Position numbers and translations under genes: made by a program. Below are positions 2,204 to 56,310 of a stretch of DNA of 64,000 bases, piece after piece. The stretch covers positions 1,364,001-1,428,000 of the forward strand of contig CDPCPM010000604.1 in the NCBI GenBank assembly GCA_976551045.1, read 5' to 3'. The DNA is from Glaucostegus cemiculus. Its lineage: Eukaryota. The notes beneath the pieces were generated by a model that was given only the letters and a program-made list of their open reading frames with translations, was not told the origin of the DNA and did no database searches. How positions within the stretch are numbered: position 1 is the stretch's first letter; each line of letters begins with the position of its first letter.

Positions 2204-2257
2204 CTGGAATCCCCTGCGGCCCTGCACTCCGCGTATTCCTGGTGGTCCCATCTCACC
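2204..2257 (-). CDS. COL9A3: exon 23 equivalent (54 nt) GEMGPPGIRGVQGRRGFQ
   Basis: Acceptor tctgcacag, donor GTAAGG; ends RGFQ like human exon 23. Confidence 0.92.
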
Positions 2258-26200: not shown

Positions 26201-29200
26201 TTGTAGTTATGGAACTTTGAGGAGGGATTCCAAAATGAGGTAAATGTCAGTCTCACATATAACACCATAACACTGGTGTGAGAGTTGTCCCTGGCACTCG
26301 TGTTGTATGGAGGCTGCACTGTCATTAAGCGGGTGGGTATTCCATGTGTGGGCTTCGGATTGGAATCTTGAAGTCTGCTTTTCTCTGCGCTCTGTGGATG
26401 TGCTGGAAGCTTGGAACTAGTGTTGAGATTTTTTACCATTTCCACATCACGCTGACAGACTCGCACCCTATACCCCTTTTAGCCACATTTAACCCCATTT
26501 GATTTGAGGATATAATGAAAACTATTCCTGGGGAATAGCCACGTTCCCAAGTCATATAAGGAAGGACAGATTGATGCAGAGGGTGCACATTAGAACATAA
26601 AACCCCTGATCAGAGTGGAACTGAGTGATGGGACTAGAGGTGGGCTAGAGGATAGGTCGGTGGATTGACTGGGCAAATGCTGCCCCTGAGGTGGAGAGAG
26701 TCGAGCTCTGTGACCACGGAGGACAGGCTGCAATGGGTATTTCCCAGAGGGAAGACTCCAACTGGGACTGAGATGCAGTAATCAGTCCAAATTGTGTCCG
26801 GTGTAAGGCTGGTGTTTGAGGTTAATGTTGGATGACTCAACCTACCCCCACAGGACTTGCCATTCCTGTCTGTTGTGGGGAGCACTTCTGCCTCTGCCTG
26901 ATAGTTGTGGGTTCAAATCCCGTGCCAGAGTACGTGTGATGCCCCGGGGGAGTGCTGCTTTGTTGGAGGTACAGTTTTCCCCACCCCACCCCACCCCACC
27001 AGATAGACATTACGATGAAGTTCCTCCTGCTCTCTCAGTTGGATTTAAGACCCCATGCACCATTTACCCAGCGCCCTGCCCAACATCCCTATCACCTGAC
27101 CATCATCGGTGCCAGTTCCCCATCGCCCGCAATCCCCCGACCTTTCAAATACTTATCCATCTCCACCTTAAACGCATCCAATGATCCGGCCTCCACCTCC
27201 CTCGAGGGCAGAGAATTCCAGAGGTTCACCCCCCCCTCTGAGGGAAGACATTTCTACCCACCTCAGTTTTAAATAACCGGCCCCTTATCTTGTAACCATG
27301 TCCCCTTGTTCACGACTCTCCCACGCCTGGAAACATCTCAACATTGACACTGCTGCCCTCTGAGGGCTAGAAGAATGTTTGAATAAGGTCACCCCGCATT
27401 CTTCTAAACTCCGAGGAATACCGAACCACACTGTCCGGCCTCTCTGAATAGGACAAACCCTCTCGTCCCAGGAATTACCCCAGTGAATCTCCTTGGGACT
27501 GCCCCCAATGTTACTGTGTCTTGTTATAGGTAAGTTGGGGGCGGGGGGAGGCTGCTGAGCCATGCTCAGTACTCCAGGTGTGGCCTCACCTACACCCTGT
27601 ACAACTGGAACACAACCTCCCGATTCTGAACCTCCAACCTCTTTGCAATATTAGGGGCGGCACAGCAGTGTAGCGGTTAGTGTCACACTCTTACAGCGCC
27701 AGTGACCCAGGTTCAATTCCCACCACTGTCTGTAAGGAGTTTGTACGTTCTCCCTGTGACTGCGCGGGTTTCCTCCGGGTGCTCCGGTTTCCTCCCACAT
27801 TCCAAAGACCTACGGGTTAGTAGGTTAACATGGGTGTAATTGTGGGCCGTTGGTCAGGAAGGTCCTAGTACCGTACTGTGTAGGTAAAGTTTTAAAAAAA
27901 GGGCGGCATGTTGTTTGCCTCCTTCGCTGTGTGGGACCTGCCGGCTCAGCCCAACCCACTCCGTCCAAAGGCAATAGGAAGGAGGGAATTTTAATCCGCA
28001 ACCCTCTCCCACCCCTGCCCACTCCTGACCCACACAATTCCCCCCACCCTTCACTCCCCACCCACACATGCACATTTGCCTCTGTCCCCCTCTCCCCACC
28101 CACACTCCCCATCCCCCAGTCTCCTCCCCACCCCTCTCCCCACCCTTTCCCCTCACATTCCCCACCCTTCCCCCTCCCCACAGTCAACACCCCTCTACCC
28201 CTCCCACCCTACTGACTCTCCGAACCAACATTAGGAAAATATCTCGTCTCATCCCATGACCAGGGTTCGGACAATCAGGAACGACCGCGGATAGGACATC
28301 CCAACCCTCTCCGACTCCACACAACTGCCTGCAAAGCCCTTCGGCCCATCGCTCGGAGAGGATGCACCCGGTACTATCATACTTACAGCTTTCCCAGGGG
28401 GCCCCGGGGGGCCGGCAGGTCCAGGAAATCCGATCAGACCCTGCGGGAGAACGGGAGAGTCAGCTCCAAGGTAGCGGACGGGTCCCTGTGATGGTCACTC
28501 AGTCTGCACCATCAGCGCGTCAGTGACCCAACAGACTTCCACCCCGTCACTGGGTGTCCACAGGGAGGGAGAGAGGGTTCCCCTCGAAGACCAGGCCAAG
28601 CTCCGGAATTCCCCCGGAAGCTCCCCGTATCCCTCCAGCAACGTGTCCCGTGGGTAGTTCCCTGCTCACTGGGTCGGCCGTCGTGGGTTCACATCCCACT
28701 CCGGGACCTGAGCACCTGCGGGGGTGGGTGGGATGGGGGTGGGTTCCTGTACGACCCTGGACCAGTGGAGGGAAGGCCCCCCCGCCTCACTGGGGTGTGG
28801 GCAGGAACGACCACTCACCACGGTTACACAGTCTGGTGCATGTCCTTCAGGAGACTACCGGTTACTGGGGGTAGAACCAGCCCCTGTCAACCTTAACCCT
28901 TACCTCCCAGTCAAAGTTAACCCTTCCCCTACTGGCCCTTAGGGCCGAGCGGCCTACGGGAGGTCACTGTGCTCAACTGGATGCTGCATTTTTTACAACG
29001 GTGACCACACTTCAGATTGGGACGATTTCATTGGCTGTGGGGATTTTGGGATGGTGAAGGGCGCTGCATAAATTCAGCTCCTGCTTTTATCTCCTCCTCG
29101 GAGGCATTTCTTAAAACCACTACTCGCGCCCCCCCCCCCCCGCTCCCTCCCTGCTTCCCCAACCCCCACCCAACACCCCTGCCCCTTCCCGGGGCACTGG

Positions 29201-32200
29201 GCTCTCTTCCTTTGCTACGGGTGCTACACGAATGCAGGTGGTTGTTGAAAGGCGGTATTGGGCTGCCTCCTTGTATGGACTCACCCTGTCACCGGCAGGG
29301 CCAGGTTTGCCCAGGGGGCCTCTCAGTCCTCGAGGACCCTGCGGAGTGAACAGAAGAGCCCGAGGTAAATCACACTCGCCACAGCCCCGTCAGGAACACC
29401 CCACCCCCCTCCTTTCCCAGGCCCAGCCCTGTGCCCCGGATCCATGGGTTTTCATAGATTTACAATGCAAATCATTTTCCAGATTGCTGTATTGCTCTAT
29501 GACTCCATCGAGTCATAGAGCAATACAGCACGGAAGCAGGCCCTTCGGCCCAACTCATCCATACTGACCAAGGTGCCCACCAACCTAGTCCCATTTGCCT
29601 GCCTTTGGCCCCACCTCCCTCGAAACCCCTCCTATCCGTGGACCTGTCCAACTGTCCGTTAAAAGTTGTTAATGTACCTGCCTCAACCACTTCCTCTGGC
29701 AGCTCGTTCCATGTACCCACCACCCTCTGTGTGAGGAGGTTGCCCCTCAGGTCCCTTGTACATTTTTCACCTCTCACCTTAAACCCCTGCCCTCTAGTTT
29801 TTGATTCCCTTTCCTGAAAAAAGACTGTGCTCATTCACCCTGTCTGTGCCCCTCGTGTTTTAGAGACATCTATAAGATCACCCCTCAGTCTCCTACGCTC
29901 CAGCGGATAAGGTTCTCGTCTGCCCAACCCCTCCCTATAACCCAGGCCCTCGAGTCCTGGCAACATTCTCATGCACCTTCTCTGCACTCTGTCCAGCCTA
30001 ATCGTATCCCTCCTACAACAGGCTGACCAAAACTGCGCACAGTGCTCCAAGTGTGGCCTCACCAACATCTGGTACAACTGCAACATAACGGCCAGCTCCT
30101 ATACTCAGTGCCCCGACTGATGAAGGCCAGCGTGCCAAACATCTGGTTCATCACCTTGTCTACTTGTGACACTGCTCTCAGAGAAACATCTTCATTAGGG
30201 ATGGACAATAAAGCCTGTAACTCTAACAATTAATAAGCAATATTTCAGTAACATTTCTCAAGGGGCTCACTTTGACCTGCCCAACTGCGAGGGAGATGTT
30301 TGTAGGATGGCACAGCTTGATGGGCTGAAGGGCCTGTTCTGTGCTGTATTGTTCTATGTTCTGTTCTATGTTCTATGAGGGAGAACTTCCTCTCGTGGTC
30401 ACGGGGTGAAGGCTCTGACCTGTCTTCTGCGCTGTCATTGAGAGGGGTCTGGCTACCCAGACTGGCCCAGGAGATGAAGCTCCACCTCTGGGTCTGAGGG
30501 GTGATCTGGACCTCAGTCCCAGGCAGCCCCAGGCTGTGGAGTGGAGTGGCTCCAAGTACTGAGCAGGGAGTGGGGGTGGGACGAGGGCTCTGTGACTGAC
30601 CCTCCCTCTCTCCAAGGGGAGCAGCCTCAAAACCTTGCTCCCGGATGTGAGTCACCAGGCGGTGCATTCACTCTCCGCTCTGGAGCTCAATAGTCCAGGC
30701 TGAAGGTCCAAGTGGGGTGCTGAGGGAGTGCCACATGCTCACTGGGGGAGTGTCCAGGTTACAAAGACTTTTAAGAGACATTTGGATAAGTACATGGATA
30801 GGTTTAGCGGGATATGTGCCAAACATGGGCAAATGGAACTAGCTTAGGTGGGCACCTTGGTTGGCGTGGACGAGTTGGGCCGGAGGGCCTGTTTCTGTGC
30901 TGTATGACTCCATGACTCTATGGAGACTTGAGCCCACGTCCCACCACACCAGCTGAGCAATATAAATTCAATTAATTAAATAGATCTAAAATTAGAAAGC
31001 TGTTCTCTGTAATGGTAACCTCAGTACTGGTAGTCTCATAAATGGTGGTCTCAGTAATGGTAACTACCAGATTGTTATAAAAACGTGAGTATGCTGGGAA
31101 CATTCAGAAGGCCAGGCAACGTCTGTGGAGAGAGCAACAGAGTTAACCTTTCAGGTTGAAGACTCTTCATCAGAACTGAAACATTACCTCTCTCTCTCTC
31201 TCCCTCTCCCTCTCTCCCTCTCTCCCCCCACACACAGATACTGCCTGACTGCTGAGAGTTTCCTGCATTTCTGTTTTTTATGTCAGAGTTCCAGCATCTG
31301 CAAGATGGTGATTTTCCTCTAACTGCTGTCATAACCCATCTGGTTCACACATTGCCGGCCGAGCTGGTGTTTGGGAGGTCTGGAGAGGTAGGCCTTACTT
31401 CTAGGGACAGAGGGGCTGGATTTGGTATTGGTAGAGAGCAGCTCGCAATGAGTCACCACGTTCTGGTGCTACTTGCAGGAATCCCTTCCCGGGACATGAT
31501 GTGGTTAAACGTTCACCGATCTGGAATGTGACAGGTGCCAGGGGTTTGGATTGACATCGGCACAGGAAGAGTCAACGGCCTGCAAGCAGCATCAGTCCAT
31601 CGCCCTGGGCTGGTAAAAGCTTCCTGCCCTTTAATCTGCCATAAGAAACCTCCAGCTGGGTGACTGCCTGACTCCCGACTCCCCTGCTGAGGAAACAGAC
31701 AATGGGTTCCCACCTGCAGGACTTCTCCGTACCAGCAGCGTTGGCCCTCAGCTCACTGACACACTCACTCCCCACCCACAACATAGCTGCGGCCTCAGCC
31801 TCCGTCTCCGCAATCTCCTCCTGAGACCTCTGCTCCCCTCCGATCCCATCCCCCCAGCCGTCCCTGGATTTACTTTCTCCACCAGCAGCGGCCGTGCCTC
31901 ATCTGACTGGGCTTCGGACTCTGGAATCCCCTTCGGAACCTTCAGGGCGGCACGACAGCGTAGCGGTTAGCGCGACGCTGTTACGGCGCCAGCGATCGGG
32001 GTTTGATTCCCGTTGCTGACTGTAAGGAGTTTGTACGCTCTCCCCGTGTCTGCGTGGGTTTCCTCCGGGTGCTCCGGTTTCCTCCCACATTCTCAAAGAC
32101 GTACGGGTAGGTTAATTTGGGGGTTTAAAATGGGCGGCGCGGACTCGGAGGGCCGAAAGGGCCTGTTACCACGCTGTAAATAAACAAAAAAAGTCACTGT

Positions 32201-35200
32201 TCCCTCGATGCGACTCCTTGACCAAGCATTTGTATACAGCTGGACGTTACTTTTTTCTGACAACTGGTATTGGTTTTGGTTTATTATTGCCACTTGTACC
32301 GAGGTACCCCTGAAGAAGTAGAGGGGCTGGTGAGCTGTCTTGGCCGTGGCGTCTATGTGATTGGACCAGGAAGGCATCATTTCTATAAAATGCCTTCAGA
32401 CATTTTCACTACATCAAAAGGCAATAAATAAATCTGAGCACTGAGTGAGATACTGCATCAATAATGGAGCACAGAGATCTCTGCCTCTCTTTCCTTCATG
32501 TGCCTCCCTGGGGCAGGGAGTCACAGAGGTGTACACCACAGGGAAAGGCTGTCCGGCCCATACCTGCCCATGCCGACCAAGATGCACATTCAAGCTAATC
32601 CTGTCTCCCAGTACTTGGCCCACATCCCTCTAAACTCTTGTCAACCATATACCTGTCACATACCTGTAATCCACCTGCCTCAGCCACTTCCTCTGGCAGT
32701 TGGTTCTATATATCTATCATGCGCTTTGTGTAACAAAAGACGTATGGGTAGGTTAATTTGGGGCGTTAAAATGGGCGGCACGGACTCATTGGGTCGAACG
32801 GGCCTGTTACCACGCTGTAAATAAAAAAAAAGTTGCCCCTCAGGTTCTTATGAAACCTTTCACCTGTAACCTTAACACTGTTGATTCCCCAATCCTGGGA
32901 AAAAAGACCACTCACCCTTCTATGCCCCCCCCCTCAGTTTATACACCTCTATGAGATCACCCCTCAATCTCCTGCAGTCCAAGGAGTAAAGACCCAGCCA
33001 GTCCGACCTCTCCCTATAACTCAGTCCCTCGAGTCCTGACAACATCCTTGTACGTCTCTCCTGCACTCTTTCCAGTTTAACTCACATCCTTTCTAATACA
33101 GGGTGAACAAACCTGAACAAGTTCGGCCTCACCAACGTCTTGTATCATCGCAACGTAACCTCCCGACTTCTGTACTCAGTGCCCTGGCTGATGAAGGCTG
33201 GTGTGCCAAACGCCTTCTTCACTGCTCTGTCTACCTGAGACCCCACTTCAAGGGAACTATGCACCGGTGCTCCAAGCTCCCTCTGTTTTACAGCCAAGGC
33301 CCTTCCTTTCAATGTAAAAGCATCTCCAGAGTGTCCCAGGAGATTGCACCCACTCTGTGTGTCCTGCTCCAGGTACCTCGTTGCACAGGAGGTTGCACAG
33401 AACAATATCGTGGAATCAACAGGAGCCGGGGCACCTCTGTTATTTTCTCCCCGGACCAATCATTTTCTCCGGAGCTCCCATGTTTTTGGTTCCTGTCTTT
33501 GATACCTCCCCAGCACACATCTCTCTGAAGGGTCAGTGACTGAAGGTGACTGTGGACTGAGCAAACCCTCTGGGCCGGTGACACCAGGTGAGAGTACGTG
33601 GGTACACAGTGGTTTGGATAATGCACTGTGGCTGTGTGGTCAGTACACAGGAATCAGTCACAGGAACGGTGGCTTGAATTGTAAGGGGAGGTCGGTTAGG
33701 CTGGGACTGTTTTCCCCGGAGTGTAGGAGGCGGAGGGGTTTAGGGTTTATAAAATCGTGAGGGGTGCAGATAAGGTGGAGGGTCACAGTCTTTGTCCCCA
33801 GGGTAGGGGAGTCCAAAACTAGAGGGCGCAGGTTCAAGGTGAGAGGGGAGAGACTTAAAGGGAACCTGAGGGGCAAGTTTCCGCACACAGGGGGCGATGG
33901 GTGTGTGGAACGAGCTGCCAGAGGAAGTGGCAGAGGGTGGGGACAATCACAATCAGATGGGTTCGTGGATAGGAATGGTTCGGAGTCAAATCCGGGCAAA
34001 CGGGACCAGAACAGATGGGCATGGATGAGTTGGGCCGAAGGGCCGGTTTCTGTGCTGTCTATGGATCGATAAGAGGGTTAAACTGTCAGTGTTGGTGAGA
34101 TGAGCATTCCCATCAGGAACGTCGGATCAGCCCCGGGAAACGGTGGTGCAGTCAGGCGCTCGGAGAGTGGCTCCTCGTTCCTGGTTCCTCTGCAGCTTTG
34201 GAATTTTGACCTCATTTGGGGCTGGAAGAGTAAATACCATCTCCCTCCACAACCAGTCAGGACAAGCTGCTCCTACCTGTAATCCAACAGGTCCAGGAAA
34301 ACCTGGCACACCAGGATGTCCGGGATCGCCCTGAAATTCCAAACAGTCAACAGTTAGAAGGTGGGTAAGAATCAGGGCAGCCCCGCTAACCCATCCTCAT
34401 TCAACCTCCTCTTCAGAGCTTCAAGGAATTAAAGAGGGCAGCAGAGTGGTGCAGCAGGTAGTGCTGCTGCCTCACTGCTCCAGGGATCCCGCTTCGATCC
34501 TGACCTCTGGCGCTGTCTGTGTGGAGTTTGCGCGCTCTCCCTGTGACCGCGTGGGGTTCCCCCCCCCCCGGGGGCTCCGGTTTCCCCCCGCATCCCAGTG
34601 ATGTGTGGGTTGGTAGGTGAATTGGCCGCTGTAAGTTGCCCCCCAGTGTGTGGGTGAGGGGTGGGAGAATCGGTGATGGGGAATGGGACTGGTCTAGGAG
34701 CCAGCATTGGTTCGATGGTCGAATGGGCGCCTAGATCGCAAGCAACTATGAAACATGGAATAAATCAGCTCAAAAGGCCAGAGACAGCAAAACTCCCCTG
34801 ATTAACTAACGTTCTTCAGGGCAGAAAACTGCCGGTCTGGTCTCTACGTGACTCCAGACCCACCTAGGTGGTTAACTCTTAACTTCCCGCTGAATTAGCC
34901 CAGCGGAGCACTCAGTTCAAGGGCAACTCAGGATGGGCGATTAACGCTTGCCGTGCCAGTGGCACCCAGTCTCCGTAAGGACAAGGTTGCTCATCTGCCG
35001 GTTCTCCTCACTGTCCCACTCCCTCTGGTCCAAACCGCCGGGGAGTTACCTTTGCTCCAATCTTCCCAGGTTCTCCGCGTTCCCCCTTGTGGCCTGTGTG
35101 ACCCTGGAAGGGAAGAGAGAGACTGTTAGTGGCACTAACGCACCAACGGTTTTAGCAACAGACTCAACCCAACAGCCGCACCCTCGCCAGCCGAGGCACT

Positions 35201-35705
35201 GCAGAATGGATCACAGGTCAAATGATCGGGCGAAATGGGGCAGGGCTGAACAGATCACAAGGGTCACAGAGAACTACAGCGATCTCACTGCGTGAGGCAC
35301 AGGCAGCAGGAGTGGGTGCTCTCCCCCACACCCCCCCCCCCGTCCTCTTTGCCAATGGAAATCACTATCTGTGTTGTGGTTCACTGGAATGAGGGGGACT
35401 AATGCCCCCCCTCCCCTCATGAACCAACGGTTGGCTAGTCGGAGATTCCAGCTCCATTTATCTTCCTGCTTTCCACTGATGCTCCTGGATCTCCGCATGG
35501 ATATCGGGCGGTACTGGAGGGGAATCCACAACTCCCATTGCTCTCACAAAGCCTCTGGTAAATTTATTAACTACCGCATTATCAGCACAACACACACATA
35601 CAGTGATGTATGTACATGCAGAGCAATGGTTAGTGTATAGCAGTCTTCACCCACACAGCAGGGTGCACACACACACACAGAGCAGTCCTCACCCACACAG
35701 CAGGG

Positions 35706-35750
<45 letters not shown>

Positions 35751-36372
35751 CAGTGTTTACACACAACAGTGTCCACAGACACAGCAATATTTACACACAC
35801 AGCAATATTTACACACAGCAGTGTTCACACACACACACAGCAGTGTTCACACGCACACACACAGCAGTGTTCACACGCACACACACAGCAGTGTTCACGC
35901 ACACACAGCAGTGTTCACACGCACACACACAGCAGTGTTCACGCACACACACAGCAGTGTTCACACGCACACACACAGCAGTGTTCACACGCACACACAC
36001 AGCAGTGTTCACGCACACACACAGCAGTGTTCACGCACACACACAGCAGTGTTCACACACACACAGCAGTGTTCATGCACACACACAGCAGTTTTCTCAC
36101 ACACACACACAGCAGTGTTCACACGCACACACACAGCAGTGTTCACGCGCGCACACAGCAGTGTTCACGCGCGCACAGCAGTGTTCACGCACGCACACAC
36201 ACACAGCAGTGTTCACGCGCACACAGCAGTGTTCACGCACGCACACACAGCAGTGTTCACACGCACACAACAGTGTTCAGGCACACACACACAGCAGTGT
36301 TCACACACACACGCACACACAGAGCAGGATTCACACACACAGAGCAGGATTTACACACAACACAGCAGTGTT

Positions 36373-36403
<31 letters not shown>

Positions 36404-39400
36404 CAGGATTTACACACAACACAGCAGTGTTCATACACACACACACACACAGCAGGATTTACACACACACAGCGCACTGCTCCACGAACTGTCACCCGTT
36501 CACCTCTCACTGCTACACAGTAATTATCCAGTCGGCATAAACCTTTCCAGGTGGAATTTGACAGGGGGAAGGTGGGGCTTCCTCTGGCTGACGGATGGAG
36601 ACCGGTACACCGAGAGCGCCCGCTCACCTTGAATCCGGGCATCCCAGGAGGGCCGGCTGGACCAGCGGGGCACATTGCCGGGCACTGCAGAGAGGTGGGC
36701 AGAGGGAGGAAGTCAGAGTTAGTCACTGTAAGTTGCTCAATCAATTTCAGAAATCAGTATCAATAACCAAACAGTCATCAATTCAAATCAAAAATCCACT
36801 GCTCTCAAGTAACAAACTATTAGCTGTCAAACAATATCAGAAATCAATCACTGTCAGCAATCAATCAACTACTGTTGTCAATTAGTAATTGTTGTCAATC
36901 AATAACAGTGATTAACAATCATTGTCAATCAACATCCACTGTCAATCATTACCAGTCACGTAAGATGTCAACCAATGTCAGCTGAGCACTCATCTCATGA
37001 TGACGACTGTTCACTGACCCTGTGGGGTTTTGGCATGAAAGGTGTTGGGGCTGTTCTGGCAGGCTGGGGCAGGCGGTGTTTAGTCATCCCCAAACTTCAC
37101 CTGATCAGCTGTACATCCAGGACGAGGAGGGGTTGACAGCCGGCACAGCTGGCACAGCTGTCCCTCCACTCAACCACTGGATTCCACACGGATCTCAAGA
37201 GCAAAGTCTGCTCCTGTTGGGATTCCTCCGCTGTGATCCCTGAGATGGGGCAGGGATTTGGGTGGGGTGCTGGTTACTGACCTGGAGTTGGGATGAAGGA
37301 GGTTCACTTACTTAACTTGAAATTATTTTAATGTCTTAAATATTTATTGATCTGTAATACATTTTATTTTTATAAAGGGTTAAGAGTTAACATCTTACAT
37401 TTCGATTGAAAGCATTTACTATAGTTTTTAAGGGTCTCTGTAGATCAGACCTGAAACCTCTCACAAAGCCTTCAGTTTCTATTTTTTTGACACGTGGCAC
37501 AGAGGGTAGCGCCACCACCTCACAGCGCCAGAGATCCAGGTTCAATTCCGACCTCTGCCGCTGTCCGGGTGGAGTCTGCACGTTCTCCCTGTGACCACAT
37601 GGGTTTCCCCCGGGTCCTCTGGTTTCCTCCCACATCCCAAAGACATGTGGGTCGGTGGGTTAACTGACTGCTGTAAACAGCAGCAGGTGAGTGGTAGAAT
37701 TTGGGGAAGAGTTAATGGGAAAATGGTGAGAATAAAACCGGTGCAACACACACAAGATGCTGGAGGAACTCGGCAGGTCAGGCAGCATCTGCAGAGAGAA
37801 ATAAACAGTCAACGTTTCGAGTCAAAACCCTTCATCAGGACGTTGACTGTTATTTCCCTCCACAGATGCTGCCTGACCTGCTGAGTTCCTCCAGCACTTT
37901 GTGTGTGTTGCTCCAGATTCCAGCATCTGCAGAATCTCTTGTGTCTGAGAACAAAATGGGTTAAGGTAGGATCAGCGTAAAGTGGGTGCTTGATGTTTGG
38001 GGCAAACTTGGTGGGCGGATGGTCTGTAGGACTCTACGAGGTGGCTCAGCCTCTCGCAGTTTCCAGCGTAGGAGCAGATCTGTCCACTGACTGCCCAACA
38101 CTGGAATTGGGGGACCCAGCACAATTGAAGGCAAACTTCTGGACTGGGTTAGACTGGACGTGGAGAAGGTGAATCCAGGTAGCAGATCAAACTGAGAACC
38201 ATCTGATTCAGAAAATAAAGGCTGGCAGATGGTATGTTGGCCTTTATAACTTGAGTACTAATGTTCTTTAATTGTCTAGCGCCTTGTCAAGACAACATCT
38301 GGAACATTGTGGACAGTTTTGGTCACCCTGCCTGTAAGTGAGAGAGGGAGTGGAGCAAAGGTTCGCCGGCCTGGTGCCTGGTGCGGTGGGGTTGCCTGTG
38401 AGGGAGATTGAGTAGATTGGGCCTGTGTTCTTCAGGGTTTAGAAGAAGGAGATGATCCAATTGAAATTTTTAAAAATCCTTACAGGACTCGACAGGATGG
38501 AGACGGGAGGCTGTCTCCGCTGGCTGGGGAGTGTAGGACGGCGGGTCACCGTCTCAGAATAAGGGGTGGGCTGTTCAGGACACGGATGGGGAGAGATTCA
38601 TTCACACAGAGGAATCCTCTGCCCTGGAGACCTGTGGTGGCTCAGTCACTGGGATCGTTCCAAACGGAGACCGATAATTTTCTGGATATTAAGGGAATTT
38701 CGGGATGTGGGGATAATGCAGGAGAATAGTGCTGAGGTAGATCAGCCGGGGATGATGGAGCAGGCTCTGGGGACTGGATACCCACTCCTGCTTCCATATC
38801 TTATGTTCTTACATTCTGCCTTGTCTTTCCAGCTGTTAGGATCAGGACGCCAGCTCAGGTCACTCACAACGAACCTGCAGAAGGCGTTTACATGAGCGCG
38901 CGCACGCACAGAGCCAACGAACGGATTGGAAAACTTACAGAGAAGTCTCCACTTCCTTCTCCTGTATAAAGTCCGGGCTCACCCTAGGAGGTGAAAGAAA
39001 GGACAAGAATGAGGACAAGTTCTGGTTTAATTACATAAAATAAGTTTCATTTTCCAACCGTCACGCATCATCTCCCAGAAGACGAGGACTCATCCCAGGG
39101 TTCCGGCTCTCTGGGACTCAGCCAAGTGCTTGGACTGTGGGTGTGGATCTCGACACCAAGCACTACCCGGAAAGGCACTGAGGCCAACCTCAACAGGGTG
39201 AGGATGACCTCACAGGGTGGATCAGCTTCCTGATCTCCATTCCACTCAACCCATTCAACCTCTTCCCAACTGTTGCTGCCTCGGGAATTGCCTACTCCCG
39301 ACTGGTCTCCTCCATTCTGCTCAGTGTCAGAGTAATACTGCACGGAAACAGGCCCTTCGGCCCAACTCATCCATGCTGACCAAGTTCTCTACTGAGCTAG

Positions 39401-42400
39401 TCCCTTTTGCCTGAGTTTGGCCCACCTCCCTCCAAACCTTTCCTATCCATGAACCTGTCCAAATGCCTTTTAAATGTTGTAACTGTAGCCACCTCCACCA
39501 CTTCCCCCGGCAGCACGTCCCACACACCCACCACCCTGTGTGTGTGAAGACGTTGCCCCTCAGGTCCCTTTTAAATCTTTCCCCTCTCTAGAGTTAGACT
39601 CCCCTACCCTGGGGAAAAGACTGTGACCACCCACCTTACCCAGGCCCCTCAACAGAAAACGTTCCCACTTCTGACCTCACTGTATGATGACAGGAAAGTC
39701 TTCTGGAGATAGTTGGGCTTGGGACATTCCTCTGACAAACTCTTTCAGTGACAGCCTGTGGCTGGAACCATTAACCTCCAATACCCATCCAACTCTGTGT
39801 GAGTTGTGACCCCAACAACTGGAGTGTTTCCTCTCTTACCAAGGATCCATGATGCCACACCTTGTCTAACGGTTCCTTGTACTCCCCAGACCTGGGTGCC
39901 TGTGTCCCCCCTTGCACCCAGTGCTGTTCACCAGCGCCTGTGCTCACTGAACCAGACCGCCGCCTGCTTAAGTAAAGCCTCAATTTCAAATTTCTCTCCA
40001 GTGTTTCCAAATCCCTCCACGTCTGTAACCTCCACAACCCTCCGAAACATCTACTCTCCTCTGATCCTGACCTCCTGCACACCCCAAAATTAATTCACTC
40101 CACCTTCAGCAGGTCATCCCTCCTGCTGCCATGCCCTTGAGTTCTGAAGTCCTGAACCTCTCCTCGTCCACTCCCCCTCTCCTCCTTTAAGATCTCCCCC
40201 TCCTGACCGAGCGCCCCCCTCACCTGCCCCCAGATTTCTTCCCGTGGTTCTGTGCCAGATTCTGGCTGGTCATCGCTGTCACTGAGCTCGCTGGGGTGCC
40301 TGCTAAGTTCAACGTGCGAGCTGGACATGAGTGATTGTTGTGAGCTTCATTGAGGTGGGTGGCAGGTGTCCCCCAAACCTCCTCAGGTTGGCCCTGGTGT
40401 TTCAGACAAAGCGCACTGAATAAATGTCACACCTACCGGGGGGCCAGGGGGTCCTGGGGGCCCGGGAAGCCCAGGTAGACCGTCTTCACCCTGAGAGGAT
40501 ACAGAGAACGTTAACACTGGCAGGTTTACATCGTCCAAGTGGGCATGTTGCATTGGGAGTGGGCAGTGCCACTTAGCAACAACCCGTGCCCTCACTGAGC
40601 AGCCGTCTGCTCCGCCAAATTCTCCCCCACCGGGGGAGGGGACGGAGAGCCGAGCTGTTGGTCAGCGGGCGTTACCGAGTCGTGGCCCAGAGTGGGGGCC
40701 ACTCTCGCTGCAGCTCTGGGCTTTCGGGGTAGGGCGGGCGGGGACCCAGTGCAGGGGAAGGAGATTTGGCTCACTGGGAACACCCTCAGCCTTGAGGCAC
40801 ACGATCACGGCTTCAGGCCTTGCTGGAAACCCAGTCCGGGCCCGTGCAGTACTGAGGGAGTCCGGTCCCATCTGTATCCTCAGGAGGACGTGGATGGTCC
40901 CATATAACCTTAGGGGACGTGCACCCTGTCCGCTACATCCAACATCACCCAAAAAAAGACCCAATGAGCTTCACTTTGCTGCTCGTGGGAGCTCACTGTG
41001 CACAAAGTGGTTGCAGAATTTCCTTTCTGTTGAATACACATTGGGGAATTGGCTGTGGAACACTGGGAGTTCCTGCACTGGAGAAACACAAGGTCTTTCT
41101 TTCTGAAACACTCTGAGTAGTTTCTGCTCGGGGAGAACGTTTATCCGTGGGAGCAGGGTGAACAGGGGAAGCAGTGAAATGGCTCTCCCTCCTGCTGACG
41201 TCAATGTCATTGACTATGTTGAACCTCATTGGTGTTCCTCTCCCACTGACCTTCATCTTAGATTTGTTGGACTGACCTCCTGGGCCAGATTCACCAGGGC
41301 AGGGACCCTAAGTAGGGAGAAGGACCAGGTTCCCACACAGCCCCTGAAAGGGATGGAACTCATTGGACCAGGGGGGCTTTCAATCCACAGACTAAATCAC
41401 AACTTTGCCAGGGCACACCCTGCCTCACAAGGGTGAACAAGGGCAGCGGGGGTTCCCAGCAGGTTCCCCTCCAGCTCACACACACATCACCGGTCGTACA
41501 TCCTCACTGGGTCCAAATCCTGGAACTCCCTCCCCAGGGGCACATAGGGAGCACATTCACCAGGTGACTGCAGCCGAATGAGGCAGCTCACCCCCACCAT
41601 TGTAAGGGCAGGTAGGGATGGGCGACAATCGCTGGCCTTGCCGGTGGTGCCCAGATCTTGGAAGGCGAATAAAAGCAGGAGCCTTTGGGCAAGTGTGACC
41701 GTGTGTGGAATAGCCACAATATGTTGTAGGATATTGTTCACTTACCCTGGGGCCACTTGGACCCTGGGGACCTTCCAGTCCGATATCTCCTTGAGGTCCC
41801 TGGAGAAGTTTAATGCAAAAACAATGATTTTCATATTCAAACCATAAACCGTTTTCAGGCACAAATACCAGACAACATTGGGACCGTTATTTCCCAGAAC
41901 ATCCCAAATCCATTCACTGACCCCCCCGGTGCGCTGACCAACAGTGCGCTGACCCCTGGCATGCTGACCCACAGTGTGCTGACCCCCGGTGCGCTGACCC
42001 CCGGTGCGCTGACCAACAGTGCGCTGACCCACAGTGCGCTGACCCACAGTGCACTGACCCCTGGCATGCTGACCCACAGTGCGCTGACCCCCCGGTGCGC
42101 TGACCAACAGTGCGCTGACCCACAGTGCGCTGACCCCTGGCGTGCTGACACACAGTGCGCTGACCCCCGGTGCGCTGACCAACAGTGCGCTGACCCATAG
42201 TGCACTGACCCCTGGCGTGCTGACCAACAGTGCGCTGACCCACAGTGCGCTGACCCCTGGTGCGCTGACCCACAGTGCGCTGACCCACAGTGCGCTGACC
42301 CCTGGCGTGCTGACCCACAGTGCGCTGACCCCCGGTGCGCTGACCCCCCGGTGCACTGACCCCCGGTTCGCTGACCAACAGTGTGCTGACCCACAGTGCA

Positions 42401-45400
42401 CTGACCCACAGTGCACTGACCCCTGGCATGCTGACCCACAATGCGCTGAGCCCCGGTGCGCTGACCCCTGGTGCACTGACCCCCGGCATGCTGACCACCA
42501 GCAAGCTGACCCCCACTCTGATGACCCCCCCAGCCTGCTGACTCCCAGCACACTGACCCCTGGTACACTGACCCCCGGCACACTTAAATCTCCTCCCTCT
42601 CACCTTAAACCCATGCCCTCTTGTTTTTGATTCCCCTACCCTGGGGGAAAGATTCTGACCTCTACCCTGTCGTGCCTCTTGTGAAACCCCATCTGCCACA
42701 AGTCAGAATGGGCTTTCGAGAAACCGTTACCAGCTAACTGGATCGAATCAATTGAAAATGATCAATTAAATATAATCACAGACACATTGACATCAACAGG
42801 ACCAGGGCCAAATCCACTGTGGTCCATCTCAACAGATCCTGGCTTCGTAGGAGCTGTGTGGTGTGAGTGGCTGCACTGGTCCAGAGGACCAGATCCAGAG
42901 ATTTTAATTCACTTTAATTGCCCACCTCACTGCCACTCTGACCTGTCTGCAGCTTCCTGCGCTGTTCCAGGGCGACCCAACAAAAGCCTGAGGAACAACA
43001 CCTCACCCTCTGTCTGGGCACGCAGCAGCCAGCAGAACTCGATGTCGAGCGACAAGCTATCTGCTGGAGGAACTCAGGGGGTCAAGCAGCGTCTGTGGGG
43101 GGAGCATCTGTTGATGTTTCGGATCGAAACCCTGCATCAGGACTCAGTGTTGATTTCTCCAGATAACTTGCTCTTTCTCTCTGCTGAACTGGACATTTTG
43201 GCATCAGTTTGGCTCAGCTTTTCCTTTTTAAATCATTTTTTTTAATCCTTACTTTGTTGTGTGCCTGGGCCCAGTGGGTTCCCAACTAGCCAGGACATAC
43301 ATTGAACAGGGAATACAACCTCAGCAACATGTTACACAAATTAAAGAGCCTAACTGCCCTCTTACTGCCCCATTTCAGCCCCCTCAGGAGAAATTCCCAT
43401 TGTTCTGCCCATCCCTCTCCCCCACTTTACCTCAAATAACTTGTTATCTCTCCCACTTCTGGTGGAGAGTCCTGGACCTGAAACATTGGCAGTTTCTCTC
43501 TCCACAGACGCTGCCTGACCTGCTGAGTGTTTTCAGCTCGCTCTGTTTTCTGGAAGGATCAGTCACGGTGCCCTGAAGCTCCTGATCCAGTTCCCCACCC
43601 ACCAGGTTACACAACTGTACTGGATAAAGAGGTTATAAGAACCTCCTAATTGTGGTGCTGACTAACTGGAAACACACCACAGGTTCACCATGAACGTAAG
43701 GCAGTGGATACTCTGTCAGCCAACCAGGACAACAGTGTCCGTCACCCAGAGCTAACTCTGGCCTCCCTCCCCTGAGCTGCCCACAACCTGGACGTGTCAG
43801 TCAGAATGGAATCCTTCTCCGTTAACTGGGAATAGACGTTCCAGAGGTTTGATCACCCCTGCAGGGGCTCAACACTCCAGCTGTAAGGAGACTATATTTC
43901 CCTCAACTTGCACTAATTGCATTGTGGTTATTTTGTCATGTAAATTATGTGTAATTTATGTTAATTTAATTTTATGTAATTTAGTTTGTCATGCACTGTG
44001 CTGCTGTTACAAAGAGCTAATTCTTATGGCATTTATACCTTGAGTATGTATGCTCATGACAATAAACTTAAACTTGACACGTGAGAGAGAGAGAGAGAGT
44101 GAGAATGAGAGAGATTGAGGGAGAGATTGAGGGAGAGATTGAGGGAGAGATTGAGGGAGAGATTGAGGGAGAGATTGAGAGAGAGATTGAGAGAGAGATT
44201 GAGAGAGAGATTGAGAGAGAGATTGAGGGAGAGATTGAGGGAGAGATTGAGGGAGAGATTGAGGGAGAGATTGAGGGAGAGATTGAGGGAGAGATTGAGG
44301 GAGAGATTGAGGGAGAGATTGAGAGAGAGATTGAGAGAGAGATTGAGAGAGAGATTGAGAGAGAGATTGAGAGAGAGAGGGGGATTGAGAGGGGGATTGA
44401 GAGGGGGATTGAGAGGGGGATTGAGAGGNNNNNNNNNNNNNNNNNNNNNNNNNNNNNNNNNNNNNNNNNNNNNNNNNNNNNNNNNNNNNNNNNNNNNNNN
44501 NNNNNNNNNNNNNNNNNNNNNNNNNNNNNNNNNNNNNNNNNNNNNNNNNNNNNNNNNNNNNNNNNNNNNNNNNNNNNNNNNNNNNNNNNNNNNNNNNNNN
44601 NNNNNNNNNNNNNNNNNNNNNNNNNNNNNNNNNGTGGAAGGAAGCGGGAAGGAATAAACACAAGCATTGAACAGAGGGTTTGAATGGCCTCTGTGTAACT
44701 CCATGCACTGAAAACCAGAATTGCAGAGTGGTGCAAGAGGCATCAGCTCCACGTGGCTCCCCATCTCCTCCTCACACTGAGATCCACGTCCAGTGAAGCG
44801 CGCACTTACCGGGGGTCCGATCTCCCCGAAGGGTCCAGTCTCTCCAGGTTCCTCTGACTGAGGGAGGAAAACACCACAATGAGCTTCACGGTAATAACCC
44901 AGTGATCAGAATAACAGCCAGTCCATCAAAACTGGCTCAAACCCATTTCAACGCAGGCTACACCACTCTGACCATGGTCTTCCCGCTAGGCCCGAGCTCG
45001 TGAGCCATGTCAGGATGGTTGACTGTGACGGGCTTCACAACCAGGTAGGTGAAACCTCCTGTGGACGTGGTGGAGTCATGAGGAGAGAAGGACATCTAAA
45101 CCACCCCTGACCCAATGCAAGTGTTCTGAGGTTGGTCCCCATCAGATACTGAGCCTGTTGAACACCCTGGCCCGGGGACTGAGTGTTGTTCTGACCCAGC
45201 GGTTTGAGACTGCTCACACACAGTAGGCAGCACATTCACCTCCCATCAGAAACTTGTGGGTTCACGACCCACTCCAGGGACATGAACATCAAGTCTGGGC
45301 TGACCTTCCCCTATAGTGCCGACTGCACCATGGGAGGGGCAGTGAGGGAGGGTCACACTGTGGGGGGAGGCAGCTCTGAGGAAGTGTCACTGTGTGGGGG

Positions 45401-48400
45401 GGGGGTCGGTACTGAGGGAGAGTCACTGTGTGGGGGGGTCAGTACTGAGGGAGGGTCACACAATGGGAGGGGCAGTACTGAGGGAGTGTCACTGTGTGGG
45501 GGGGGTCGGTACTGAGGGAGGGTCACACGATGGGAGGGGCAGTGCTGAGGGAGTGTCACTGTGTGGGGGGGTCGGTACTGAGGGAGGGTCACACAATGGG
45601 AGGGGCAGTACTGAGGGAGAGTCACTGTGTGTGGGGGGTGTCGGTACTGAGGGAGGGTCACACGATGGGAGGGGCAGTACTGAGGGAGTGTCACTGTGTG
45701 TGGGGGGTGTCGGTACTGAGGGAGGGTCACACGATGGGAGGGGCAGTACTGAGGGAGTGTCACTGTATGGGGGGTGTCAGTACTGAGGGAGGGTCACATG
45801 ATGGGAGGGGCAGTACTGAGGGAGTGTCACTGTGTGGGGGGGTGGGTTGGTGCCGGTCAGCCTGTCTGCCTGTCTTCCGCGCTTACGTGCACGCGCGGGT
45901 GTCCCTGGAGAGGGAGCACGCGGTTTCCGCGGGCACCCTGGTCGAGTTCCGCGTGCGGTGGGCCCCAGGGGGTGTCGCGTGTGTCATGGATGGTGGAAAT
46001 GCGATTCTTATTTGATGTGTCGCGTGTTATGGGTTTAGTGTTGCGTGAGTTTTCTTTGTCGTAGTGTGCTTATTTTCCTGTAGTTGTGTTGTTGTCTAGT
46101 TTTCTTTTTGTATTAGATGTAGTACGTTGACACTGGTTGTCATTTCTGCAGTGCTTTTGTATGCTTTTAGTGAATAAATGTTGTATATTAAAAAAAGGGT
46201 GGGGGTCGGTACTGAGGGAGGGTCACACGATGGGAGGGGCAGTACTGAGGGAGGGTCACTGTGTGGGGGGGGCGGTACTGAGGGAGGGTCACACGATGGG
46301 AGGGGCAGTACTGAGGGAGGGTCACTGTGTGGGGGGGGCGGTACTGAGGGAGGGTCACACGATGGGAGGGTCAGTACTGAGGGAGGGTCACTGTGTGGGG
46401 GGTCGGTACTGAGGGAGGGTCACACGATGGGAGGGGCAGTACTGAGGGAGGGTCACTGTGTGGGGGGGTCACACGATGGGAGGGGCAGTACTGAGGGAGG
46501 GTCACTGTGTGGGGGGGTCGGTACTGAGGGAGGGTCACACGATGGGAGGGGTAGATTTGGGATGGGATGGGTGGTGATGTTACTGGGATACTCAGAGGGA
46601 CAGGCTGCCTTCTGATTGATATCGAAGAGCCTGTTCACCCCCTCTGTGGTGTAAGAGCCCACGGCACTTCATTCAGGGAAAACGAGGGAGGTATTGTGTC
46701 GCCAGCCAGTGTTTGTCTCGCAAACAACTGGACTCTGAGTTGTCTGCTCATCGCTGTGACACCAAGACCGGCGCAGACCCTCGGGGTAACCAGTGGTTCC
46801 ACCATGTTCAGGGGGTTACTCACCACTAGTAAGTCCGCTCCGGGGAGTCCGGGTGGTCCTGGGTCTCCCTGCCAAGAAACAACGTTACCAGCTCACAGTC
46901 AACGTCGTTAGGCTGCTGTCCCCTCCAGCCCCACCCTACACAGAGTTCACCCTCTCACTCCAGAGTAGGGTTCGAATCCCGCTCCCGTCCCCGAGCCGTA
47001 CTCCAGGCTGAGGGTCCTGGCGGGGTACAGAGGGGGTCACCACTCTGTTTGACTGGCTGAGAATTAAACTGAGGCCCCGTCGGCCTCTCAGATCATTCAG
47101 CTGGATCACTGGAACGAGGGCAGTGTTCCCCCACACTCCCTCAGCACGCGCTAGCCCTGAATACCTCTGAAAGCAGGTGAACTGGTAGTTTTCCCAATCC
47201 CTCCCTTGTGGGATCTTACTGTGCACCCTTTTGCCCCATGCTTCTGCGGGGGCTGCACCTCAAAAGTCCTCAGTTGCTGAGGGGATTCTGTCCAGTGCCC
47301 AGGCACTGTATTGGAGCCATTGACAAGACCATGAGGGTTGGGCTGAGGCTGAGTGTGGGGCACTGCCCACTACCTCACACACAGCGGTGTGTGAGCTGCA
47401 GTCACACCTCGTCGGTCAAGCGTCAGGGTGACACTAGGTCCCTGAAGGGTGTCCCTCTGTGAGTCAGCAAGCAACAGCCCACCCAGAGTGCCGTGTGCGG
47501 TGTGAGGTCCAGATATTGCAGTGGGGGCATTAAACCAGTGCATTTCTGCAACCAGGTGGTTAGTTCACAAGTTCACAAGACAAGGGAGCAGAAGTAGGCC
47601 ATTCAGCCCTTCGAGTCTGCTCCATGAGAAGAGAAAAGATAACATGTCTATCCCCAATTTCCAGCCTGATCCCCATATCCCTTGATACCTTGATTAATTA
47701 GGTACCTAACCAACTCCCCTTTAAATGCCCCCACTGACTGAGCCTCTACAGGAGGCTCTACAGGAGTTAGCAGTTAACTTAGAGAACATAGAACATTACA
47801 GCACAGTACAGGCCCTTCAGCCCACGATGTTGTGCCGACATTTTATCCCGCTCTAAGATCTATCTAACCCTTCCCTCCCACATAGCCCCCCATTTCTCCA
47901 TCATTCATGTGCCTAAGAGTCTCTTAAATATCCCTAATGTATCTGCCCCCACAACCCCTGCCAGCAGTGTGTCCACACACCCACTACTCTCTGTGTAAAA
48001 AAACTTACCCCCGACATCCCCCTTATACCTTCCTCCAATCACCTTATAATTACGTCCCCTCACGTTAGCCATCGTTGCCCTGGGCCAATGTCTCTGAAGT
48101 AAGGAGCACACACCTCCGCTGGGGCTCCCAGCACTGCCACCATTACTCAGAAGAGGATGTGTGGGGTCTGCCGCCCCCTTGAACCTGCGGTGCTTTGGGT
48201 GAAGGTGCTCCCTCAGTGCTGTTGGGGAGCGGGGTTGCAACTTAGACCCAATGACGATGAGGGAACGGCGATCTCTTTCCACGGCGCATCATTCACTTGG
48301 AGGGGAAGCTCCTGTTGGAGATGGTTCCATGTGTCCACTGTCCCAGTGTTTCTGGCTGAAGGCGGCCGTGGGTCTGGGACGGAGCTGATGGAACAGCGGC

Positions 48401-51400
48401 CATGCCGGTGGGTGAGGCTGTGCTGCAGATTCTCCCATCCGGGCAGGCGGAAGGTGTTCCAGCACACCCCTGACTGTAGCCTTGGGGGTGTCAGGAGGGG
48501 AGTCACTCACCACAGGATCCCCAGCCCCTCAGCTCCTCCTGCAGTCACGGTGTTTATGCAGCTGGTCAGTGGTAGCCCCAGGTGGGCTTCTACCACTGTG
48601 GGGACCTGGATGGTGGGGACCCGGTGATGGTAATGCATTAAACACCAAGGGCAGGTGCTTGGACTCTCTTGTGATGGAGCTCGTCATACCTTGTCATTGT
48701 ATGTAGATGGTGGGACCGTTACTCACTGTCAGTCAGCAGATTGACAGCTGCCATCTGAAACTTCATGAACAAAATTTTACTTTTGGTAACAATGACCCTG
48801 CCCCCATGGTCCCGGCAGTTAATCACCCCTCTCCTGTACCCCCGCTCCCGCTTCCCACCGTGTTGGAGTTGAAAGCTGGAGGAGGAAGATGCCAGGGGCA
48901 CTTAAGGACAGCTTCTACCCCACTGTGATAAGACTATCGAACGGTTCCCTTATACAATGAGATGGACTCTGAACTCAGGATCTACCTTGTTGTGACCTTG
49001 CTGTCATGATTCTGAGTACTGGCCCTTGATATGGTTCCTTAGATGCCTCATTGTACAGCACATGGATTCCATGCTGGACTGATTGCACAATGACACACAC
49101 CTGAGCCCCATCAGGGGCCTAGCATTAGTACCTGGGTTTCTCTAGCACTAGTTGCCAGAGGATTGGTTAACCTTGAAGATTCAGTTTGGTTCCTAGCTGC
49201 TTAGAGTGGTCTACTCCAGAGCAGTCCTGTGTTCTCTAGTCCTGCTTGAAGATTCCGTTTGTGTTGGGATTACTACTCAGATCTCCGAGGCAAGATTTCC
49301 TTTCAGTGTTGCCTGTGTTTGTTCCTGAGGAAGTATCCTGACTCCAGTCTTGTACCAGTGTGCTGCATTTGGGTTCTCTGTGAGCTTGCTCTTCAATCAA
49401 CATTGTGACACTTGCACCTTATTGCACTGCACTTCCTCTGTAGCTGTGACACTTTACTCTGTACTGTTACTGTTTTTACCTGCATTACATCAATGCACTC
49501 TGTACTGACTCAATGTAACTGCACTGTGTCATGAATTGACCTGTACCATTGGTTAGTAAGACATTTTTCACTGGACCTCGGTAGAAGTGACAATAATAAA
49601 CCAATCCCAATACCAAAGAAGAGTTCTGATCTGGGGTCCTGCTGTAAACACTGGATTTAAACCAGCCAGCCCCACCACATCTCAGCATCAGTGGGTCTGG
49701 ACACAACAACGGCCTGGAGATCCTGCAGAAGGTTGACCTCACGCCTCGCCGATGGCCCCCAAACGTTCTCACACAGTGCCCGCTGCACGGTCTGTGTTCA
49801 CGTTTAGTCACGTTGTCCGCTGGGGGAGGAGGGCACCGTGTTCCTACAGTCGAGACATCTGCAACCTCTTCCCTCCCCTAAACCCCACCCTGGGGGGATA
49901 CGATGCCCGGACAGCCAGTTGTTTAAAGGTCAGAGCGTACCGTTAGAATCGGACTTACCCTTTCACCCCGGAACCCGTCAGCACCCGGTGGCCCGTCAGG
50001 TCCGGGTAAACCCTGCGGAGAGAAAAACGAGTCAGAAGTTGGGCTCAGTTCACCCTCCCGCCCACTTCCCCCACAGCCTGTGGAGCTGCTGCCCCACAGC
50101 TCCAGGGACCCCGGTTCGATACCGACCTCCACCGCTGCCTGTGTGGAGTTTGCACGTTCTCCCTGTGACTGTGTCGGTTTCCCCTGGGTGCTCCGGTTTC
50201 CTCCCACATCCCAATGACGTACGGGTTGGCCATTTAATTGGCCGCTGTAAACTGCCCCTAGTATAAGGTGGCACAACATGGTGGGCTGAAGGGCCTGTAT
50301 TGTGCTGTATTATGGTTCCATAAGTGGGTGGGGGGGTGTGTGGAATCAGGGTGGAGTTGATGGGAGTGAGAGAAAGAGAATAGGTTACAGGGATATAAGC
50401 GGGGGAATGGGACTGATGGGATGGCTCTGAGAGCTGGAATAGGCACGATGGGCCAAATGGCTCTTTTTCTACTGGAATAGAATACCTGAAATACACAAGA
50501 TAATTTTAAGTTACGCCCCTTGGCTGGGACTCCCCCAATACTACATGTGATAAAGTCCGGGGTTTGCATAGATTTAAGAGAGTGAGAGAGTTTTCTTGCC
50601 GAAGACGGAGGGGAGATTTAATGGATACGATAGCGTCTTTCAAGAGGCTGTTAGATAGGTACATGGAGCTAAGCAAGATAGAGGGCTATAGGTAAGCCTA
50701 GTAGTTTCTAGTGTAGGAACAAGTTCGGCACAGTTTTGTGGGCCAAAGGGCCTGAATTGTGCTGTAGGTATCTATGTTCTATGATATCGAAAGATGAGGG
50801 GTGTGGACAGAGTGAACAGTGGGAGGCTGCCCCTGTTGGCAGAGGGGTGAAGGACTAGAGGATCCAGGGATAGACTAAAGGGAATGAGACCTCAGAGTGA
50901 CATGAGGGAAAGTTTTTGATGCAGCACGTACTTGGAATCTGGAACATACTGTCCGCAGCTTCCACTGTGGCCTTAGAGTCAGAGTCATAGAGTACCCACC
51001 GAACATTGAAAGGCCTGGATAGAGTGGACGTGGAGAGGATGTTTCCAGCAGTGGGAGAGTCTCAGACCAGAGGGCACAGCCTCAGAATAGAAGGACGTCC
51101 CTTTAGAACTGAGGTGAGGAGGAATTTCTTCAGCCAGAGGGCGGTGAATCTGTGGAATCCATTGCCACAGATGGCTGTGGAGGCCACGTCACTGGGTGTA
51201 TTTAAAGCGGAGGGTGATAGGTTCTTGATTAGTGAGGGTGTCAAAGGTTACAGGGAGAAGGCAGGAGAATGGGGTTGAGAGGGAAAAATAAATCAGCCAT
51301 GATCGAATGGTGGAGCAGATTCGATGGGCCAAATGGCCTAATTCTGCTCCTATGCCTTATGGTCTTATAGTCACACAGCATGGAAACAAGCCCTTCAGCC

Positions 51401-55894: not shown

Positions 55895-56310
55895 GACTCA
55901 TAGAATAATACAGCATAGATACAGGCCCTTTGACCCGACCCGTCCATACCGACCAAGATGCCTGTCTGAGTTAGTCCCATTTCCCTGTGTTTGGTCCCTA
56001 TCCCTCTAAACCTTCCCTATCCACCTGCCTGTCTAAATGTCATTTAAACACTGTCATTGTACCTGCCTCTACCACTTCCTCTGGCAGCTCATTCCAAGTA
56101 CCTACCACTCTCTGTGTGGAAAACTTACCCCTCACATCATTCCCTCTCACCTTAAATCTATGCCCTCTAGATTTAAACTCCCATTCCCTGGGAAAATGCT
56201 GTGACTATCAACTGAATCTATGCCCCTCATGATTTATAAACGTCTGTAAGGTCACCCCCGAGCCTACTTCACTCCAGGGAAAACAGTTCCAGCCTGTCCA
56301 GTCTCTCCTT
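55895..56310 (-). mobile_element. CR1/HER1 LINE 3' end
   Basis: acaggccctttgacccg...ctaccacttcctctggcagctcattcca. Confidence 0.85.

Follow-up and report, generated by a model that had tools for sequence, protein, structure and literature searches.

A candidate glycosaminoglycan acceptor serine in the NC3 hinge of alpha-3(IX) collagen is part of a motif common to the four collagen IX genes of Glaucostegus cemiculus

In humans, the NC3 domain of alpha-2(IX) collagen reads GLEGSADFLCP and that of alpha-3 EGATDLQCP. The alpha-1 NC3 of birds and mammals is several residues shorter than that of alpha-2, a difference believed to kink the molecule. Collagen IX is described as a part-time proteoglycan (PMC4859157) possessing one chondroitin sulfate (CS) site in NC3, on alpha-2 (PMC8465916), and a single CS chain (PMC10987296). 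The fishes possess extra collagen IX genes (PMC10119692, PMC8423624), and teleost collagen IX has FTIR sulfate bands which, as presented in PMC6521242, are assigned to no chain. In the literature searched, in which older biochemistry and figures are thinly covered, neither a glycosaminoglycan (GAG) site on alpha-1 or alpha-3(IX) nor a comparison of NC3 across fishes was found. The supplement of a zebrafish glycoproteomics study (PMC7758351) is uninformative on alpha-3: there were no matches to 'col9', and two of the three places mentioning 'collagen' concern types XVIII and XV-B.

According to PMC5992326, xylosyltransferase XT1 requires a Ser with Gly or Ala at +1, both being equally good, is otherwise lax, and favours an acid at -2 to -4. 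On a folded protein it needs about four extended residues on either side, accessibility being a major determinant. The same source indicates that nearly all known GAG sites carry Gly at +1, and that some of the sites xylosylated by XT1 may not be elongated. CS is described as the default chain, heparan sulfate (HS) needing several acidic residues C-terminal to Ser-Gly (PMC10570366). Prediction by motif only is held to be ambiguous, and matches are often undetected or unoccupied (PMC8418075).

The window, that is the whole stretch of 64,000 nucleotides of contig C604 which was analysed, contains part of a collagen gene with the following features:

2204..54709, minus strand: COL9A3 exons 3–23, the in-window part of the gene; exons 1–2 and 24–32 are in adjoining stretches of C604
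40437..40490, minus strand: exon 9, 54 nt, the last full triple-helical exon of COL3
38939..38983, minus strand: exon 10, 45 nt, phase 0-0, closing COL3 and opening NC3, reading GEPGLYTGEGSGDFS
38945..38959, minus strand: EGSGD motif, candidate xylosylation site, in a register common to the four collagen IX genes
38951..38953, minus strand: AGT codon of the candidate acceptor Ser, position -5 relative to the first NC3 Cys
36628..36684, minus strand: exon 11, 57 nt, the NC3 Cys pair CPAMCP and the start of COL2, reading CPAMCPAGPAGPPGMPGFK

The 45-nt exon 10 is regarded as confirmed, its splicing being predicted from splice signals, from the reading frame and from four homologous genes. A ..ctag acceptor rich in pyrimidines precedes it and a gtaagt donor follows. 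It ranked first (score 11.5) among the 23 Gly-starting, phase-0 AG..GT candidates lying between exons 9 and 11; the runner-up (8.5) has an identical acceptor and a different donor. The pattern [DE]GS[GA][DE] was found once among the 127,996 six-frame positions of the whole window, and is thus not a common chance word. A chance exon call was ruled out by this rarity together with the top rank. The original prediction, made from the letters of the window, that exons 10 and 11 splice to give a Ser motif followed by CPAMCP agrees with the translation, the splice signals and the candidate ranking; its exon numbers match a gene model that places both exon 2 and the candidate for exon 1 beyond the window.

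By its sequence the gene is an otherwise ordinary ortholog of COL9A3. The exon chain that was built (exons 2–32) specifies the layout COL3-NC3-COL2-NC2-COL1-NC1 with a short N-terminus devoid of an NC4 globule, and a candidate signal-peptide exon (exon 1) lies 1.9 kb above exon 2. The last exon matches named alpha-3(IX) proteins at 67–73%. When exon 30 was compared with PDB, alpha-3(IX) was the only full-length (1–61) top match (67 bits; alpha-2, 60.6; alpha-1, 60.4), three unrelated long collagen-like chains scoring above it owing to repeats. Database alpha-3 proteins scored best on the C604 locus in five of the five cases that gave a result. In a tree of exons 29, 30 and 32 (8 rows; protein models P0001, P0006 and P0008 were excluded as frame-shifted or incomplete there) the gene joined four amniote alpha-3 sequences at 88/92, below the star threshold of the tool. 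Directly upstream, some 6 kb from the candidate for exon 1, the minus strand carries the PF04664 exons of OGFR (C604:1449666-1451477); OGFR and alpha-3 are fused into a single protein model in turtle (P0004). The exon 30 match, the five queries, the tree and this neighbour bear out the earlier assignment to an alpha-3-type chain. A structure-atlas top match to 'CO9A3 fragment' (0.97) was weak, with recognition below the threshold of the tool. No PDB chain spanning NC3 exon 10 or 11 was found, some queries matching helix only. As in tetrapod COL9A3, OGFR lies on the same strand, there are 32 exons, the helix exons measure 54 nt, NC3 has its Cys pair, and NC2 and NC1 are nearest to named alpha-3 proteins.

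Searches of the same genome revealed three further collagen IX genes, on C106, C215 and C59. These were named from NC1/NC2 sequence and the tree; C106 we take to be alpha-2 and C215 alpha-1, labels which are partly our assumption. Two of the loci are positioned as follows:

G000:C215:5777591-5777635 (L064:7591-7635): alpha-1 NC3 exon, 45 nt, one codon shorter than the 48 nt of alpha-2
G000:C59:9691500-9771300 (L028-L036), minus strand: fourth collagen IX gene, exons 2–32 open and of the expected sizes

Exon 10 of alpha-2 (48 nt, 16 residues) reads GPPGNLHGAEGSADLL and retains EGSAD, while those of alpha-1 (GLPAVTHSDGSGEVL) and of the fourth gene (GPPGTAGDGSGEVV) contain DGSGE. Since the alpha-1 NC3 exon is only one codon below that of alpha-2, the hinge is nearly symmetric. 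The gene on C59 is nearest to alpha-3 yet outside the alpha-3 clade in the tree, and its exon 1 was not located by the search that found exons 2–32. It is likely to be the duplicate that mammals lack, and zebrafish col9a1c or bowfin 'col9a3-like' may be related to it. A PF02210 scan marked no NC4 exon at the collagen IX loci of C215 or C59.

In all four genes [DE]GS[GA][DE] is present, its Ser lying five residues ahead of the first NC3 Cys. The Ser codon is AGY in each and TCN in none, and the neighbouring Gly codons vary at the third position, which points to descent and not convergence. The exon 10 identities to the window exon are 53% for alpha-2, and 50% and 33% for the other two paralogs; among six homologous 54-nt exons, 5 of 72 X/Y columns (about 7%) are invariant over the four genes (3 of 44 when Pro is left aside). 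In composition shuffles the motif fell at the Ser register in 0.00007–0.0006 of the trials per peptide; as the four paralogs are not independent draws, this figure means that the motif is real and says nothing on its use. The sharing of motif, register and codon family suggests that the site is older than the duplications and was held in the lineage.

The original prediction had placed the Ser in the register of the alpha-2 site, and the alpha-2 gene of this genome does have its own Ser five residues before the Cys. The motif is not peculiar to alpha-3, as had been supposed; the alpha-1 and fourth genes carry it also. A 'doubly glycanated' molecule is likewise not the upper limit, the alpha-1 motif raising the maximum to three chains per trimer. 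A swap of the site from alpha-2 to alpha-3 was excluded, alpha-2 having kept EGSAD.

The site in the window, E-G-S-G, has Gly at +1, Glu at -2 and four residues between Ser and Cys, as in alpha-2. Acidic residues within eight positions of the Ser number one per side, equal to alpha-2 of this genome, and form no cluster; the sequence spacing of exon 10 permits about four extended residues each side of the Ser. As a candidate site it conforms to the sequence rules set out in PMC5992326, in keeping with the earlier description of a xylosyltransferase-type motif. Compared with the alpha-2 CS/DS site it is alike in register, in the acids at -2 and +2, in Gly at -1 and in the distance to Cys; it differs in having Gly where alpha-2 has Ala at +1, and in that the alpha-3 acceptor is a candidate. 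The view that it is 'more canonical' than alpha-2 stands as regards this Gly, which is shared with nearly all known sites, but not as regards enzyme preference or acidity, XT1 being equal with Gly and Ala and the acidity being the same. The E-G-S-G core is in common with the EGSG sites of bikunin, syndecan-1 and collagen XVIII; those sites, however, have denser acidic clusters and are on open chains, whereas the alpha-3 Ser lies between two triple helices.

Outside this genome, a metagenome contig (L073) contains exons 6–11 of a tetrapod-type COL9A3. Over exons 8, 9 and 11 it is identical to the window gene at 40 of 55 residues, the paralogs giving 29, 34 and 37. Its exon 10, GLPGTLPDGGGDLQ, is 42 nt against 45 nt in the window and has DGGGD, with the same acid/Gly frame and GGT in place of AGT, a change of one base. 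The Ser is therefore present in four of four paralogs of one cartilaginous-fish genome and absent from the one outside alpha-3 ortholog, so that the expectation of an alpha-3 without Ser elsewhere holds for one tetrapod-type chain. It follows that Ser was lost at least once from alpha-3 and that the surrounding frame persists without it; the best reading of these sequences is a loss in at least some tetrapods. The window gene also differs from L073 in a longer COL3 interruption at exons 6–7. These exons (46824-46868 and 44810-44857; 45 and 48 nt) encode LLV-SEEP, by which the COL3 helix is interrupted for 7 residues; the corresponding exons of L073, 36 and 24 nt long, contain a short imperfection only.

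In the protein collections, the alpha-3 models (P0001-P0009) are mis-predicted or partial, and exon 10 is in frame in none of them; the homolog searches yielded no alpha-3 from a second cartilaginous fish. The collagen IX NC3 Cys motif was present in one (P0007) of the 129 proteins collected, a set consisting mostly of unrelated collagens. The turtle model P0004 is out of frame at exon 10, the shifted reading allowing S, G, R or C at the Ser. P0064, named 'alpha-1(IX)-like', was dropped, being without NC3. A primer for zebrafish col9a1c (residues 43–52) translates as SKDGKGDTVC (PMC10119692); if the register is read correctly, its DGKGD would correspond to the NC3 motif, Lys replacing Ser. Zebrafish Col9a1c and bowfin 'col9a3-like', both actinotrichia chains, are products of extra collagen IX genes, as is that of C59. 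D-G-K-G-D-T-V-C stands in the same register, but the zebrafish stretch has Lys and comes as early as residues 43–52; in the C59 gene NC3 is preceded by a full COL3.

The reading that we favour, at somewhat better than even chances, is that the shared Ser motif is an ancestral GAG acceptor which no chain has lost here and which probably bears CS/DS part of the time. A single gene preceding the duplications would have possessed [DE]-G-S-G-[DE]-x-x-C. In the non-helical NC3 hinge the Ser would be within reach of the cis-Golgi xylosyltransferase; the default chain, CS, would follow, for the site has no acidic patch of the kind that selects HS. The state with one chain on alpha-2 would then be derived, Ser having been lost from alpha-1 and alpha-3 while alpha-2 keeps the less usual Ser-Ala. 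In favour of this reading are the retention of the motif in all four paralogs at exon 10 identities of only 33–53%, and the fact that the alpha-2 member of the set is the counterpart of the known CS site. We put the chance that the alpha-3 Ser is at least partly occupied by CS/DS a little above even; occupation of all three chains in this animal appears doubtful. A more tentative extension is that the ancestral molecule was symmetric, a proteoglycan glycanated on all three chains, that in cartilaginous fishes alpha-1, alpha-2, alpha-3 and the fourth fish-type chain each carry chondroitin at NC3, and that birds and mammals came to their single-chain form when alpha-1 and alpha-3 lost the Ser.

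It is possible, if less probable, that the motif is ancestral but merely a flexible acidic turn before the NC3 Cys, only alpha-2 being xylosylated and the Ser of alpha-1 and alpha-3 being inaccessible in the trimer. The frame D/E-G-x-G-D/E persists with Gly in L073 or, by the primer reading, with Lys in Col9a1c, so that its conservation may be partly structural. With three adjacent hinges enclosed by a triple helix at either end, the enzyme may find room only on the longest (alpha-2, 16 residues against 15 and 15). The weight of accessibility for XT1 (PMC5992326), the many motif matches that were not found occupied (PMC8418075) and the single CS chain given in reviews for birds and mammals (PMC8465916, PMC10987296) are consistent with such a turn. 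However, the Ser is invariant in four ancient paralogs, against about 7% of ordinary X/Y columns, and a purely flexible turn would accept Gly or Ala; moreover, an alpha-2 exon longer by one residue offers little asymmetry by which alpha-2 would be singled out.

We consider it unlikely that the Ser is modified without a full CS chain, by a capped xylose linker, HS or phosphate. The Ser-x-Glu of alpha-1 and of the fourth gene is similar to the motif of Fam20C, but in alpha-3 the +2 residue is Asp and not Glu. A capped linker is compatible with the xylosylation of more sites than are elongated (PMC5992326), and EGSGDF, with its aromatic residue at +3, resembles a zebrafish collagen XVIII HS peptide in the supplement of PMC7758351; initiation of HS needs several C-terminal acids (PMC10570366), however, and alpha-3 has one. 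That alpha-3 gained an alpha-2-like site by gain, conversion or swap, special to it or to its lineage, is very improbable: although the sole other alpha-3 exon read (L073) has no Ser and the window exon 10 is closest to alpha-2, the paralogs largely refute such a gain, for alpha-1 and the fourth gene agree with alpha-3 in motif, register and codon family, alpha-2 retains its own site, and one ancestral origin with later losses is simpler than three gains.

With an ancestral acceptor on every chain, the collagen IX of this animal may carry up to three chondroitin chains, compared with the single one of birds and mammals. In the literature searched, no cartilaginous fish was found to be described as having the acceptor motif on all of its collagen IX chains. 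If all chains are acceptors in elasmobranchs, the restriction to alpha-2 is a derived asymmetry and its odd Ser-Ala site is explained; a more heavily glycanated fibril surface would be predicted in shark and ray cartilage, vitreous and fin fibres, and with every chain glycanated the charged coat on the fibrils would be several-fold denser. A trimer in which three nearly identical sites neighbour one another would also serve as a natural experiment on how xylosyltransferase selects its sites. The collagen IX pathway and gene family are unchanged by the finding, and the motifs can be read from annotated shark proteins.

Other FACIT genes were encountered in the genome. The collagen IX gene on C59 is arranged tail to tail with a vWA-bearing FACIT gene, presumably COL22A1-like, and alpha-1 on C215 is also tail to tail with another FACIT gene. 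The vWA exon of COL21A1 (C292) shows 94.6% identity to a ray protein, 89.2% to that of a shark and 57–74% to those of five bony vertebrates, which bears out the elasmobranch host of the original prediction. Beside COL21A1 on C292 there is a second, COL21A1-like FACIT gene at G000:C63:7508784-7553743, the vWA exon of which has 52–59% identity to ray and shark COL21A1 and 72% to a frog 'XXI-like' protein.

Within introns of the window there are two N stretches (25813-26136 and 44429-44633; 529 bases), near which no expected exon is missing. A dispersed repeat, probably a SINE-type element, translates as a mimic of Gly-X-Y and gives false collagen exons on both strands; it is also present in L002, L005 and L007, and its copies in the window are:

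3110-3209: Gly-X-Y-mimicking dispersed repeat
30850-30894: the same repeat
51384-51437: the same repeat
55919-55954: the same repeat
61888-61932: the same repeat
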